A stretch of DNA of 64,000 nt from Pyrinomonadaceae bacterium (lineage in GTDB: Bacteria; Acidobacteriota; Blastocatellia; Pyrinomonadales; Pyrinomonadaceae), in assembly GCA_031396065.1 (NCBI GenBank), contig JANNJZ010000418.1, positions 9,030 through 73,029 of the forward strand, read 5' to 3'. Below, one piece after another: positions 15,327 through 50,350 of the stretch. The position numbers and the translations under genes are program-made. Position 1 is the first letter of the stretch. Every line of letters begins with the position of its first letter. The notes under the pieces were generated by a model. It made no database searches and was not told the origin of the DNA. It worked only from the letters and a program-made list of their open reading frames with translations.

Positions 15327-15374
15327 TGGTAGGCGCGTGGGGACTTGAACCCCAGACCTCTGCCGTGTCGAGGC
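15327..15374 (-). pseudogene. tRNA-Val 3' fragment (anticodon loop to CCA)
   Basis: The reverse complement is GCCTCGACACGGCAGAGGTCTGGGGTTCAAGTCCCCACGCGCCTACCA. This covers the anticodon loop TCGACAC (GAC), the T arm TGGGG/TTCAAGT/CCCCA, the acceptor 3' strand and CCA. The sequence upstream of it cannot form a D arm or an acceptor 5' strand. Confidence 0.75.
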
Positions 15375-15506
15375 CGTCCCTGGGTCACCTCGGACAGCGC
15401 GCAATCTTTGCTCACGCGTTGAATATTAACCAAAGAGGCTTGAGAAGTCACTCAACACTGCACGGATTGAATAAAGCGTAAGCGTAGTCTGCCAAAACTT
15501 TCCGCA
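15361..15506. repeat. Direct repeat copy 2 (pairs with 4031-4187)
   Basis: See 4031-4187. Here the repeat abuts the tRNA-Val 3' fragment instead of an integrase body. Confidence 0.8.
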
Positions 15507-15530
15507 TGGGGAGACGGAGCTATTAGCCTT

Positions 15531-15854
15531 CTACGCAGGCATGCCGTGTTCGACCGTTTCAGCTCGTCGCACTTTGATCTTCACTTCGACTCGTGACCCG
15601 AGCCGGTTGATGATCGACATCAGGCGATCGACGGTGAACCGCCCAAGATCGGCGTTGCGGATGCGCGAGAAGTCCGCTGCCGCAATCCCAGTGCGGCCCT
15701 GCGCGCCGCGAACGCTAAGCCCGTCACGGTCGAGCGCTTTGATGATCTCGGCGGCCAGAATTGCCTTGAACTGATCGGCATCGGCATTCTTGTGTCCCAG
15801 GTCGCGAAAAACATTTCCGCTTCCCTTCACTACGTCCAGCTTTTCGCTTTTCAT
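15531..15854 (-). CDS. XRE-family HTH antitoxin (HigA-like)
   Basis: GSGNVFRDLG...QFKAILAAEIIKALDRDGLSVRGAQGRTGIAAADFSRIRNADLGRFTVDRLMSIINRLG fits the antitoxin that pairs with Gp49/HigB-type toxins. It overlaps the upstream toxin gene by 4 bp. Confidence 0.8.
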   Translation of the reverse strand: MKSEKLDVVKGSGNVFRDLGHKNADADQFKAILAAEIIKALDRDGLSVRGAQGRTGIAAADFSRIRNADLGRFTVDRLMSIINRLGSRVEVKIKVRRAETVEHGMPA

Positions 15855-16198
15855 CGCAACATCTCCTTCAGCCTTTTCATACGGTCCTTGACCAGATCGC
15901 TTTCAGCTTTGGGTGTCTTGATGCCCCGCGTAGATTTCTTCTGAAAGACATGGACAACCCAAATGTCTTCACCGAGCTGCACCGCATAGACCACGCGGAA
16001 CGCGTCACCGCGAAACGGTAAAGCAATCTCGAACACGCCCGAGCCTAAACCCCGCATCGGCTTCGCAATGTCGGCCTTACCGCCCTCTGCGGCAATCGTC
16101 AAGGCGGTAAGACAAGTTGACCGCACCCCATCTGGGAAAGTCTCGAATTCCCTGAGTGCCGCTTTGATCCACGAAACGGGCCGCGTGCGTCTGATCAT
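15851..16198 (-). CDS. Gp49/HigB-like (RelE/ParE superfamily) toxin
   Basis: WIKAALREFETFPDGVR...KPMRGLGSGVFEIALPFRGDAFRVVYAVQLGEDIWVVHVFQKKSTRGIKTPKAE is the typical DUF891/Gp49 pattern. The toxin-first gene order also fits. Confidence 0.8.
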   Translation of the reverse strand: MIRRTRPVSWIKAALREFETFPDGVRSTCLTALTIAAEGGKADIAKPMRGLGSGVFEIALPFRGDAFRVVYAVQLGEDIWVVHVFQKKSTRGIKTPKAESDLVKDRMKRLKEMLR

Positions 16199-16249
16199 TT
16201 GCCTCCCCGTTCATCGCTCCGCGATCTCGTCTCGGATCTTGCCCTGCCA

Positions 16250-16269
16250 TGTTGTCACATATGACAACA
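16250..16269. promoter_or_regulatory. Perfect 20-bp palindrome, probable TA operator
   Basis: TGTTGTCACATATGACAACA lies ~52 bp upstream of the toxin start codon (16198, minus strand). Confidence 0.5.
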
Positions 16270-16370
16270 CACGTCAATTGTGAGGGAAGTAGTCTTTTCT
16301 GCTAATTTGCGCTCGCGAGTCCGTCCCTCTCGGAGCGCGTCTAAGAGAGCTCCTTATAGAAGAGCGTAGG

Positions 16371-16976
16371 CTAAACAATGCTTGCCGCGGCCTCGTTGAC
16401 AGTCGAAAGATAGAGTCTTCGACGAGCACGGTCCAGGCGTTGATAAAGTGAACTGCGGTTAACTCGCAGTTGGCGGGCAGTTTCGGAATGGCTGCCCGTC
16501 TTTCCCCGCAACATGTCATAAAGATCCTGCATGGCATGGTCAAGAAAATCATCCAGGGAATCACCCTCGGTGTAGGCGCCGAATGGCCAGCGACCATTTG
16601 TGGAGCACAAGACAACGTGAGGATGGTTGTCGAGGGCGCGGCGAACCGCGTCTGCGTTAATGAGTGAGTCTCCCAAGGTGCCGACCACCAGTTTCTCTAC
16701 CACATGGCGAAGCTGACGAACATTGCCGGGCCAGTGGCAATCAAAGAGAGCATCAATGGCGTCATCTTCGATTCTCCGCGACACGGTCGATTTGATCTTC
16801 TGCTCTGTCTGATGTTGAAAATATTGCAGGAGCAATGGAATGTCTGAAATTCGATCTCGCAGAGGCGGTGTGTTGATGGCCAGCACCGCAATGCGATAAA
16901 AGAGATCTTCCCGGAATCGACTGAGCCGGATACCGAACCGGATTGCTGCAACGACTACCCGGTTACTTGGTCCCAC
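16371..16976 (-). pseudogene. 5'-truncated sigma54-dependent activator (C-terminal part of the AAA+ domain plus the Fis-type HTH only)
   Basis: FREDLFYRIAVLAINTPPLRDRISDIPLLLQYF, WPGNVRQLRHVVEKL and a C-terminal HTH (SHSETARQLRVNRSSLYQRL). The Walker A/B and GAFTGA regions are missing. Confidence 0.7.
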
Positions 16977-48437: not shown

Positions 48438-48450
48438 AAGGAGGTTTGCC

Positions 48451-48699
48451 ATGCGTTACCTGTGGTTGGTATTTGCGATTTCCCTCCTGCTTATCGGCAT
48501 TGCTGTTGGGCGATTCCTCAAGCTCCCGCCGCCAATGGCGTACGCAGTGGGCACGGTTCCAGCGTTTCTGGCGACGTATCCTTTTATGAAGCGTTGGATG
48601 CCAAAGGCCACTTTCGCCTATTGGGTGACTGCTGCGGCTATTTCAACCGCGGTGGGCTGGTTGCTTTATTTCGGCTTTACACGCCTTGGAGGCCAGTGA
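48451..48699 (+). CDS. Small membrane protein (82 aa)
   Basis: AGGAGG lies 7 nt upstream of the ATG at 48451. There are three hydrophobic segments (MRYLWLVFAISLLLIGIAV...). Confidence 0.55.
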   Translation: MRYLWLVFAISLLLIGIAVGRFLKLPPPMAYAVGTVPAFLATYPFMKRWMPKATFAYWVTAAAISTAVGWLLYFGFTRLGGQ

Positions 48700-49377
48700 G
48701 CTTAGGAAAGCAACTTGAGCAAGCAGGAAGTAAGCGTGAGGACAGTAACCGTAGGGGCAAAAGCCTCCGCCAACCGAGATGAAGGCCAGTGCCAAAACGC
48801 TGGCCTTTCGGTTATTGACGCCCAACGGAAAATGGCTTGCAAGGAACGATGATTCCGTACCGTCACTTGAATACTGGCGCTTCGTCCGCCGCGAATTGCT
48901 TACGTCTCCTGCGATTCAGCGACCCTGGTCCGAGATCTCAAAAAACTCATCACCGGTCCACTCTTCCTTCACTACCTGGCATACAACAAGTCACCATTCG
49001 CATTCCAAACGAACTCGCCGGCTGCGGCCAGGCTCAATTAACGATCGAGGGCGCCGAAGACAACCGTCAGCCAGAATCGTTTTTGGATAGTTTGTCCCGC
49101 CTGCAACGAGGCGATCTTCAAGGTTGTACGCAACCTGGGAACGAAGGACGATGCCGCCTTACATTACTTCTCACATTACGAAGCCAGCAAAGCTTACGCG
49201 GCAGACTGCGAGCTACGAGTTGGCGGAATTACAGAACGCGAGATTACCGAAAAAGCCATTCAGTCAAGAGATCAGAAACTCAAGTTTTTTATCGCCACAC
49301 TCCAGACCATCATTCATGACGATTTCGAACTCCACCTGCCAGACGATTCTCGTTGGACCGCCAACCAATTTCGAGAC

Positions 49378-50010
49378 ATGAAACGGTCCCACACTATGAC
49401 GGACCTCCGCTTACTCGTCTATCAATTCTTCTTTGTGAAAACCTTTCCCAAAATATCCGACGTAGAACTTATTTCCACATTCGACTGGGCTTTAGAATTC
49501 CTCCCGGAGCGAGAACAAAAAGCGCTCTCAACTAACCTCAGCTTGCTAACACAAAAACGAATCGCACTGGACCTGTTACGACATCTGCGCAACTCACAAG
49601 CCCGGCCTACTTTCGAGACTCTCTTTGACCATGCATACGCCTGGTCCGCTCGACGACTAGAAAACAACATCCACAAGCAACAACTCATAGGCATGCCATC
49701 GCTCAACGATGAAGAACACAAAGAAGAAAAAGCAATCCTAAAAACGATGTTGCAACTATTAACCACTAGCCGCCACAAGCTTCGACCGTTATTAGCAAAG
49801 CTTGCTGAGAAAAGGGTCGCAACAGCAAATCCAGACAGCCCTGACAACTACATGATGAAGCTTTTTGATAACATCATCAGAGAGATGTTCGTGATTCTGA
49901 TACGTCTTGTATACCTCTCGTTGCTACAAGAAGCTCTCAAAGAACAAAGCCCACCTGCGCACCCAGCAGACCTGCGTACGCTTTCCAGTTGCTCCCCCAT
50001 GTCCACCTAG
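49378..50010 (+). CDS. Hypothetical protein; the ORF is open further upstream without a start codon
   Basis: The 210-aa ORF starts at an ATG. The same frame is open and protein-like back to 49042 (VCPACNEAIFKVVRNLGTKDDAALHYFSHYEASKAY...) but has no ATG, GTG or TTG there. Confidence 0.5.
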   Translation: MKRSHTMTDLRLLVYQFFFVKTFPKISDVELISTFDWALEFLPEREQKALSTNLSLLTQKRIALDLLRHLRNSQARPTFETLFDHAYAWSARRLENNIHKQQLIGMPSLNDEEHKEEKAILKTMLQLLTTSRHKLRPLLAKLAEKRVATANPDSPDNYMMKLFDNIIREMFVILIRLVYLSLLQEALKEQSPPAHPADLRTLSSCSPMST

Positions 50011-50056
50011 CGTAAGATTACGCCTCCGAGCAGTTCTGATTTTTAAGGTTTGATAT

Positions 50057-50132
50057 AGGCGCGTAGCTCAGTTGGTAGAGCGTTGCCTCGACACGGCAAA
50101 GGTCTGGGGTTCGAGCCCCCACGCGCCTACCA
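50057..50132 (+). tRNA. tRNA-Val (anticodon GAC), CCA encoded
   Basis: AGGCGCG-TA-GCTC-AGTTGGTA-GAGC-G-TTGCC-TCGACAC-GGCAA-AGGTC-TGGGG-TTCGAGC-CCCCA-CGCGCCT-A-CCA folds as a canonical 76-nt cloverleaf. Confidence 0.9.
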
Positions 50133-50308
50133 GAAAAATCTGGCGGCTTGTACAGCAAAGAACCCAATGCACCTCTGCCCGACCAACTACCCGACCAACG
50201 CAGTGCAGATACTGGTGACACCGTGGACACTGGGGAATGCCACTTTATGTCATTTGCTCAATGTTTTTGAAATGCTGAGATTTTTGAGGACCGAAAACCT
50301 GCCAAGCG

Positions 50309-50350
50309 CTGCCGTGTCAAGGTAGTGCTCTACCCCTGAGCTACGCGCCT
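50309..50350 (-). pseudogene. tRNA-Val 5' fragment (acceptor 5' strand to anticodon loop)
   Basis: The reverse complement is AGGCGCGTAGCTCAGGGGTAGAGCACTACCTTGACACGGCAG. The acceptor strand, D arm and anticodon loop (GAC) are present. The downstream sequence has no T arm or acceptor 3' strand. Confidence 0.7.

Follow-up and report, generated by a model that had tools for sequence, protein, structure and literature searches.

Two tRNA-Val halves 35 kb apart in a Pyrinomonadaceae genome: probable scars of two integrase systems at one integration hotspot

Introduction

Genomic islands and prophages that integrate into tRNA genes classically regenerate their target, and elements of this kind are catalogued in Islander (PMC4383910). 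[quoted passage not shown] It is described for the actinobacteriophages Fionnbharth, LeBron, Gaia and others, and a prophage of Lactobacillus johnsonii, Lj965, is named as another likely case; experiments in mycobacteriophages have established the mechanism, and related phages at the same attachment site (attB) either rebuild or replace the tRNA (Guerrero-Bustamante & Hatfull, mBio 2024, PMC10865867). Here we analyze a stretch of 64,000 nucleotides (the window) from a Pyrinomonadaceae bacterium (Acidobacteriota) in which two halves of a tRNA-Val(GAC) gene lie about 35 kb apart on the minus strand, with an intact tRNA-Val(GAC) next to the 5' half.

An earlier note on this DNA read the two halves as the ends of one insertion of about 35 kb that had entered the anticodon loop by site-specific recombination, had not regenerated the tRNA, and was compensated by a tRNA-Val from the element or a later event. 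By comparing the window with relatives (loci and contigs labeled L below), we find that Pyrinomonadaceae have an integration hotspot in the tRNA-Val(GAC) gene downstream of ABC-F, a hotspot that serves at least two tyrosine-integrase systems, both crossing over in the anticodon loop. As far as sequence comparison can tell, the two halves are probably scars of these two systems: the attL of a tRNA-replacing element (here C-type, with integrase Int-2) and a junction of tRNA-regenerating islets (here K-type, with integrase Int-1).

The disruption and replacement of the tRNA gene in the window is the mechanism of tRNA-dependent lysogeny, already published and now documented across an Acidobacteriota element family. 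As in the phages, attB overlaps a host tRNA gene (the 5' half equals positions 1-39 of the host allele A), the core is short and no functional tRNA remains at attL, the element carries an intact tRNA-Val(GAC) of the same isotype, and related elements at one site either rebuild or replace the tRNA. The phages further have a tyrosine integrase and pairs of arm-type repeats that flank the core; here Int-2 beside a P arm with two TTGGTCGGG repeats is seen in the relatives L217, L223 and L224, and the window has neither Int-2 nor its cognate P arm. The differences lie in the host phylum, which here is Acidobacteriota, and in the elements themselves. The C-type elements are not phage-like: no phage structural or lysis genes were found among the examined backbone genes of L220, L205, L212 and L217, and their conserved junction module had no match among the viral contigs of IMG/VR. 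Their replacement tRNA sits 176 nt from the core, close to attL and inverted, and what tRNA identity remains is found 5' of the crossover (L217, L223, L224). The copy in the window, moreover, is without integrase and distal end.

Classical islands are matched instead by the K-type islets (15374-4031 in the window; L026, L034, L062 and L077 elsewhere). In these the tRNA at one end is regenerated, the opposite end consists of P arm, core and displaced 3' fragment, and an integrase or its remnant stands beside the tRNA; the islets accumulate in tandem. What departs from the classical pattern is that the gene is not regenerated at the C-type junction (50309), that the interval 15327-50350 has a truncated 5' half and no intact gene at its proximal end, and that the K-type islets of the window are without integrase function, the junction at 4031 being fused into the integrase gene.

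Results

Two halves from two alleles of one tRNA-Val gene

To the right of position 50400 the window carries genes for an ABC-F ATPase, a SurA-like protein, RelA/SpoT and others in an order that is syntenic in 80 Pyrinomonadaceae/Blastocatellia loci; to the left of 50350 we found no synteny with these loci. In the relatives, one tRNA-Val(GAC) lies directly downstream of ABC-F on the same strand. Three alleles of the gene are found there:

Allele A, 75 nt: anticodon stem CTACC/GGTAG, T loop TTCAAAT; intact in 30 of the 80 loci.
Allele B, 76 nt: anticodon stem CTGCC/GGCAG, T loop TTCAAGT; intact and alone in 12 loci.
Allele C, 76 nt: anticodon stem TTGCC/GGCAA, T loop TTCGAGC; the intact gene of the window.

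The tRNA features of the window are the following:

50309..50350, minus strand: 5' part of tRNA-Val(GAC), reading AGGCGCGTAGCTCAGGGGTAGAGCACTACCTTGACACGGCAG; positions 1-39 of allele A, then CAG, with non-tRNA sequence after it.
15327..15374, minus strand: 3' part of tRNA-Val(GAC), reading GCCTCGACACGGCAGAGGTCTGGGGTTCAAGTCCCCACGCGCCTACCA; positions 29-76 of allele B including CCA, with non-tRNA sequence before it.
50057..50132, plus strand: intact tRNA-Val(GAC), allele C, called by ARAGORN and by Rfam (65.8 bits); inverted relative to the disrupted gene.

Both halves lie where the earlier note had placed them, and their matches to tRNA-Val are far above chance (blastn E values of 1.6e-17 for the 5' part and 6.7e-23 for the 3' part, with pattern searches in agreement). 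Identity of the 5' part to positions 1-39 of allele A is 100%. The 3' part is likewise a perfect match (100%) for allele B; its identity to alleles A and C is 93% and 94%, respectively. The core that they share, the 10-mer GACACGGCAG (50318-50309 in the 5' part), occurs in the window only at the two halves, although taken alone this is weak evidence, as 0.26 chance matches are expected and at least two matches arose in 3 of 100 shuffles. Joined at the core, the halves give the predicted sequence of 75 nt, which ARAGORN calls a tRNA-Val(GAC); at default settings the program calls neither half by itself. Because the 5' part comes from allele A and the 3' part from allele B, the single A.C mismatch in the anticodon stem of the joined molecule is the mark of two alleles. 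ARAGORN and Rfam call just one tRNA in the window, the intact, sequence-distinct gene at 50057-50132, on the opposite strand and 176 nt from the 5' half (roughly 180 bp in the earlier note).

The 5' half at a conserved, tRNA-replacing junction

We read the junction at 50350-50309 as the attL of a C-type element, an assignment that belongs to the two-system reading and that we hold to be likely. It is made up of the 5' part and the sequence that follows it:

50309..50350, minus strand: host arm and core of the likely C-type attL; GACACGG-N-AG, then conserved element sequence.
50133..50308, minus strand: P' arm of the C-type element, with two direct TTGGTCGGG repeats at 50198-50190 and 50186-50178.
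49963..50056, plus strand: presumed promoter region of the element tRNA, about 95 nt on its upstream side; aligns with L065, L038 and partly L010, 78-96% identical to metagenome copies.

The TTGGTCGGG repeats, at +122 and +134 from the core, are putative arm-type integrase sites. Core, P' arm, inverted tRNA and the ~95 nt at the inner edge form a module of about 345 nt (50308-49963) that recurs in five other genomes (L022, L038, L044, L065, L203), all of them Pyrinomonadaceae metagenome-assembled genomes (MAGs) with the module at the same tRNA, and in 19 metagenome contigs (L204-L222). Identity of the P' arm is 85-97% in L038, L065, L203 and L204-L222, and 75% in L044. The element tRNA is identical in the modules of L038, L065 and L203, has counterparts with at most six substitutions, equally far from the core, in 15 of the 19 metagenome contigs, and is present in every genomic module copy that reaches that far. 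Upstream of the core there is a complete 5' half of allele A in 10 cases (some of them adjoining ABC-F) and an allele-B 5' half in five, the remaining copies having truncated remnants or a P arm; the 5' remnants of L203 and L208 carry substitutions and look like pseudogenes. At the attL of the window no functional tRNA has been rebuilt, ARAGORN calling nothing there, and the same is true of the five genomes and 19 contigs. The recurrence of this arrangement, together with the far end that two of the MAGs retain, bears out three parts of the earlier proposal: site-specific entry in the anticodon loop, failure to regenerate the tRNA, and compensation by a supplied tRNA-Val.

Comparison of the module copies also locates the crossover. 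All four bases occur at N in GACACGG-N-AG, whichever allele was the target, while loop position 2 (T or C) mostly follows the target allele, which places the exchange inside the anticodon loop and the first bases of the stem; in the window, strand exchange took place between loop position 2 and the base after GACACGG. The C-type crossover thus matches the class of tRNA-targeting integrases with an anticodon-loop sublocation that was reportedly described by Williams (Nucleic Acids Res 2002).

The spacer of the P' arm is 85-88% identical (75% in L044) between hosts whose ABC-F genes are only 73-76% identical at the DNA level (host-gene identities were measured by blastn). The hosts closest to ours by ABC-F DNA, L012 and L001 (79-80%), have an intact allele A; exact-protein look-ups with ABC-F and RelA gave no match. 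Since the spacer is more alike than the host gene and the closest hosts keep allele A whole, the module spreads horizontally.

Both ends of the C-type element in relatives

What a complete C-type element looks like can be seen in relatives. In L217 the gene for Int-2 (a tyrosine integrase of 411 aa, with Pfam domains Phage_integrase and SAM_5) comes first and is followed by a stretch of 170 nt, then by core, P' arm and inverted tRNA. Its 170-nt P arm holds two further repeats of the TTGGTCGGG type, at -83 and -71, and such a pair lies on the integrase side of the core in L217, L210, L223 and L224. A search with the Int-2 of L217 found exactly two genomic loci, L223 and L224, and these belong to JTS-RE85 and H1-B1, the MAGs that have an attL on L038 and L065. 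Both have Int-2, a P arm with two TTGGTCGGG repeats, the core and a tRNA 3' half, and within each MAG the allele of the 3' half is that of the 5' half, B with B in one and A with A in the other. To these relatives, then, the picture drawn in the earlier note applies to the letter: a single tRNA-Val broken in its anticodon loop, with one half at either end of an element that brings along a whole tRNA-Val of its own.

The 3' half at a junction of K-type islets

The second half lies in different company. Its surroundings, and a second locality at the left of the window, contain the following:

15375..15497, minus strand: K-type P arm, copy 1; arm-type motif TTTGGCAGAC at 15496.
15256..15326, minus strand: sequence after the tRNA 3' end, which we take for the beginning of an 11.3-kb K-type islet; one TTTGGCAGCC arm-type-like site at 15273.
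4045..4175, minus strand: second copy of the K-type P arm; TTTGGCAGAC occurs twice, at 4175 and 4164.
4031..4044, minus strand: second core copy GCCTCGACACGGCA, fused directly to the integrase pseudogene.
3178..4030, plus strand: decayed tyrosine integrase Int-1 (Pfam), without about 100 N-terminal residues and with frameshifts.

The 171-nt stretch 15327-15497, which joins the tRNA 3' part to the first P arm, is 94.7% identical to the attR of the islet in L026 and homologous to the attR of L034, L062, L077 and L014. The islets of L026, L034, L062 and L077 have an intact tRNA at one end and a direct repeat of the tRNA 3' part at the other; in L026 there is an islet with intact tRNA and no C module. 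On the other side of the 3' part, matches of 110-120 nt over the tRNA 3' part and 15326-15256 are 93% identical to L016 and L045, where this sequence follows an intact allele-B tRNA; the stretch 15326-15256 also matches the sequence after the tRNA in L026 and L021, and visibly similar sequence, including TTTGGCAGAC repeats, stands behind the 3' half of L223. The second P arm at 4045..4175 forms direct repeats with 15379-15497 at 77-81% identity and aligns with L207, L026 and L034. Since 15326-15256 is the sequence that usually follows the tRNA and a second copy of K-type arm and core lies at 4031-4175, the segment 15374-4031 is an 11.3-kb K-type islet, which carries an EAD1/protease/PLD operon (4.4-14.4 kb), and 15375-15497 is the end of the next islet upstream. 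The 3' fragment 15374-15327 would accordingly be a displaced or imported 3' half at a K-type junction, either the attR of one islet or the tandem joint of two, which we regard as probable along with the C-type assignment of the 5' half.

The integrase of these islets is Int-1, only 23% identical to Int-2. The pseudogene at 3178-4030, part of the frameshifted integrase that the earlier note had already seen at 3076-4110, has 67% amino acid identity to residues 101-382 of the intact integrase in L001. Immediately behind the catalytic GYAH motif its C-terminal tail gives way to the core and the K-type arm, so that at 4031-4044 the tRNA 3' half and the last ~45 integrase codons are missing; the fusion has the look of a deletion, or of illegitimate recombination, with its starting point at the edge of the core. 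The open reading frame (ORF) of the pseudogene reads on through the core (..WGAMPCRGRPGSP.., window 4031-4090). Full-length homologues of Int-1 stand right after tRNA-Val in L001, L018, L031 and L063, and C-terminal remnants lie beside the tRNA in the K-type islets L026, L077 and L016 and in L054; testing of large ORFs in L026 and L034 turned up no integrase.

One insertion or two systems?

The strongest competitor is the earlier proposal itself, in a form that accommodates the alleles: a single element of about 35 kb would have entered one hybrid tRNA-Val (A at the 5' side, B at the 3' side, left by an earlier classical integration), and the two halves would be reciprocal attL and attR. A K-type islet that brings an allele-B 3' half to an allele-A gene would create just such an A.C hybrid, ARAGORN accepts the joined halves as a tRNA, and a search of 15.5-50 kb for a third tRNA fragment found none between the two junctions. 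Yet no intact hybrid with A at the 5' and B at the 3' side was seen in the 80 loci. The arm motifs at the two junctions belong to two integrase systems, TTGGTCGGG at one and TTTGGCAGAC at the other, and in both MAGs with two ends the distal end is formed by Int-2 and a TTGGTCGGG arm and not by a K-type arm. The 95% identity of the 171-nt stretch to that of an islet that regenerates its tRNA, and the truncated backbone and islet genes that meet at 16.9-17.0 kb, fit poorly with a single insertion. That the halves are products of one event, as the earlier note had it, is for these reasons (different alleles, arms of different integrase systems, a mosaic interval) an account we consider unlikely.

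Several observations nevertheless weigh against two systems. The window has neither an Int-2 gene nor its cognate P arm (a TTGGTCGGG arm was looked for inside 15.5-50 kb without success), so that the C-type assignment draws on the proximal ~1.25 kb and on gene remnants. The chief caveat comes from L207, in which a K-type P arm is fused directly to the C module. We read this as a tandem junction, though it may be a hybrid attP; contiguous K-type P arm, core and C module are what the attP of a single element should look like, and if L207 is a true attP the two junctions of the window could come from one event. The P' arm starts with CTTGGCAGG, which loosely resembles the K-type motif. Allele C stands at the native place in ordinary, direct orientation in L015 and is therefore not exclusively element-borne. 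Finally, the order of events and the deletion described below are our reconstruction. Taken with these points, the two-system reading remains the one that we think probable.

The 35 kb between the halves as a mosaic

The interval is most likely not one element: it is a mosaic of an element remnant, an inserted extracellular contractile injection system (eCIS) block and an islet remnant. Its features, from right to left, are:

49066..50010, plus strand: conserved cargo gene (~342-aa family) beside the C module, without the first ~30 codons.
17672..47225, plus strand: sigma-54 activator and eCIS locus (eCIS domains by Pfam) between 169-nt direct repeats at 17672-17840 and 47057-47225.
17034..17528, plus strand: C-terminal remnant of a DUF3854/Toprim-like backbone gene, ~160 of ~428 aa.
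16371..16976, minus strand: 3' fragment of a sigma-54 activator gene of K-type islet origin, C-terminal 183 of 345 aa.
15531..16198, minus strand: toxin-antitoxin pair (Gp49/HigB-like and HTH_37, Pfam).

The toxin-antitoxin module, element debris and eCIS locus that the earlier note listed are thus all present. The note had seen no intact recombinase gene in the interval, and in our analysis none of the large ORFs of 15.3-50.3 kb has a recombinase domain by Pfam or a match by tblastn with both integrase types.

The closest relatives of the element are L220 (spacer 97% identical) and L221 (cargo protein ~94%), and the window is collinear with them only at 50308-49066, in two short pieces at 48736-49065, and at 17118-17512, with genes truncated at the breaks. 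The cargo protein has 93.7% amino acid identity to the protein of L221 and 74.7% to that of L220, both encoded right after the module; its frame is open, yet there is no ATG, GTG or TTG start before 49378, and it is cut at 49066. Pfam gave no match for the 210-aa cargo ORF of the window. The ~342-aa family, which contains a CPACN motif, adjoins the C module in L220, L221, L215 and L222 and may be part of the core functions of the element.

Homology to the backbone of L220 resumes on both sides of the eCIS block, which looks like a separate insertion into the element cargo. The 169-nt repeats that bound it are 89% identical and 29,385 nt apart. Over its last ~65 nt each repeat is similar to the 3' portion of a class II tRNA-Leu(UAA), from the anticodon stem-loop through the long variable arm and the T arm to acceptor and CCA, a weak tRNA-like match, and the ~100 nt before are conserved as well; the repeats may be attachment scars of a third integration system. 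A Logan contig of another run, L200 (29,397 nt), spans the block from one repeat toward the other, and an exact look-up of the tube protein returned one Logan contig only, which is the eCIS block.

At the interval's left end, the DUF3854 remnant (73% amino acid identity to residues 266-426 in L220, 54-56% to L205 and L212; the Pfam match to DUF3854 is found for the L205 protein and weak for the remnant) abuts the sigma-54 fragment, which is 98.9% identical in DNA over 555 nt to a gene inside the L026 islet. It is this contact of backbone and islet sequence that makes us read 16922-17033 as a deletion joint. In L205, L212 and L220 a protein of ~425 aa with a zinc ribbon and a DUF3854/Toprim-like part is encoded 2-7 kb from the core, and in L205 and L220 the next ORF resembles, by eye, the C-terminal part of a ribonucleotide reductase. 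The Toprim-like protein hints at a replicative or conjugative-plasmid-like ancestry of the C-type backbone rather than a phage one.

Integrity of the assembly, and the remaining alternatives

The earlier note had named a chimeric contig as a possible cause of the arrangement, and we consider it very improbable that host and element sequence were misjoined through a tRNA 5' part common to many organisms of the sample. Contigs cover both junctions without mismatch: in run X1, a Logan contig of 13.8 kb cleanly spans the 3' fragment (14300-15635, zero mismatches) and one of 2082 nt covers 49000-50341, across the 50308/50309 junction, and both junctions recur without mismatch in three runs of one freshwater-sediment study. 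A misjoin would find room inside the 42-nt tRNA part itself, where the Logan contigs break (49000-50341 and 50324-50715 overlap by 18 nt only) and where depth is inflated by other organisms. Contig depths on the two sides are similar, however (8.9, 7.85 and 10), and ABC-F, 5' half and C module are contiguous in the independent assemblies L022, L038, L044, L065, L213, L216, L219 and L222. No excision or empty-site contigs turned up in the four runs, though Logan contigs cannot prove such forms absent.

Between the tRNA remnant and ABC-F, at 50629-50728, the window has a 32-nt inverted repeat with 91% complementarity, where joints with strand switches and skips occur in Logan contigs of several runs; probably this is a palindromic repeat element common to many organisms in the samples.

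An inversion between two convergent tRNA copies was also considered and rejected: it would give two full-length hybrids on opposite strands and not a truncated 5' half with non-tRNA sequence behind it.

The halves recall the split tRNA genes that Randau et al. (2005) reportedly described in Nanoarchaeum equitans, in that they are broken near the anticodon loop, lie far apart and together form a valid cloverleaf, but the chance that they are transcribed apart and joined in trans is negligible: they have no complementary joining sequences (the flank duplex energy of -18.9 kcal/mol is at the level of shuffles, mean -19.4, sd 3.8, on which we reject a gene of this type), they come from different alleles, an intact gene with the same anticodon lies 176 nt away, and the 5' remnants of L203 and L208 have decayed like pseudogenes. 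They are recombination scars and not genes; to our knowledge, trans-joined split tRNA genes are described only in archaea, and the host here is bacterial.

Discussion

The two systems differ in what their attP carries. K-type islets (Int-1, arm motif TTTGGCAGAC) have an attP with a tRNA 3' half, so that the gene is rebuilt and the old 3' half displaced. C-type elements (Int-2, arm motif TTGGTCGGG) have a P' arm of non-tRNA sequence and leave the gene unrepaired, with a complete inverted tRNA-Val(GAC) that has its own upstream region, 176 nt on, replacing the lost function. The pairing of each integrase with its motif, like the dependence of the present cell on the element tRNA, is put forward here as a putative feature of the model.

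A history consistent with these features would begin with K-type islets accreting at the native allele-A gene, one of them with the EAD1/protease operon at 4.4-14.4 kb. A C-type element would then have split the tRNA at the head of the K-type array. A later deletion, with its joint at ~16.92-17.03 kb, may have removed the distal part, that is Int-2, its P arm and the true displaced 3' half, and the 29.4-kb eCIS block would have been inserted into the element cargo. The C-type attL retains the full anticodon stem-loop (GG-N-AG) and could therefore still be a usable target for K-type islets; L207 and L211 look like products of such K-type integration at a C-type attL.

In L211 (5286-5355) we also see an allele A with an internal deletion, in which, for lack of the D arm and 5' stem, the 5' strand of the acceptor runs straight into the anticodon loop; it adjoins ABC-F, 4 kb upstream of the junction of P arm, core and C module.

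Other loci may have changed their tRNA allele. A second, simpler architecture with an equal effect (L011, L014, L020, L046) consists of an allele-A 5' half cut after TTGACAC and a complete, direct allele-B tRNA ~32 nt on; in L014 an allele-A 3' half follows 3.5 kb beyond the allele-B tRNA. In L003 the native place is taken by an allele-B tRNA, with an allele-A 3' fragment 3.5 kb off and no allele-A 5' half, and the sole tRNA-Val of L010 is an inverted allele C right behind ABC-F. The allele-B replacing islets of L014 and L003 contain no integrase, only a gene for a 1007-aa kinase. It is possible that L003, L010 and L015, and likewise L011, L014, L020 and L046, are end states of a replacement of the tRNA allele.

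For annotation, the locus is a caution that two fragments that combine into a cloverleaf are not necessarily partners, and it illustrates that arm-type repeats can reveal which integrase made which junction. It also sets boundaries for the islands with the eCIS locus and with the EAD1/protease defence operon. More broadly, the C-type elements extend tRNA-replacing integration to another phylum and to elements that are not phage-like, and one locus offers a natural series: the intact gene, the gene split with both halves kept, the gene split with the far half lost, and the replaced allele.

We suggest tentatively, and with rather less assurance than the two-system reading itself, that the C-type elements are a widespread non-phage family of Acidobacteriota in which reuse of attL as a target, combined with host dependence on the element tRNA and an eventual replacement of the host allele, amounts to an addiction-like fixation of islands. 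If so, the stem-loop retained at attL would explain the tandem, mixed arrays; loss of the displaced 3' half, as in the window, would leave the host putatively dependent on the tRNA of the element; and the tRNA-Val allele of the host would be replaced over time, for which A to B in L003, A to C in L010 and perhaps L015 are candidates.

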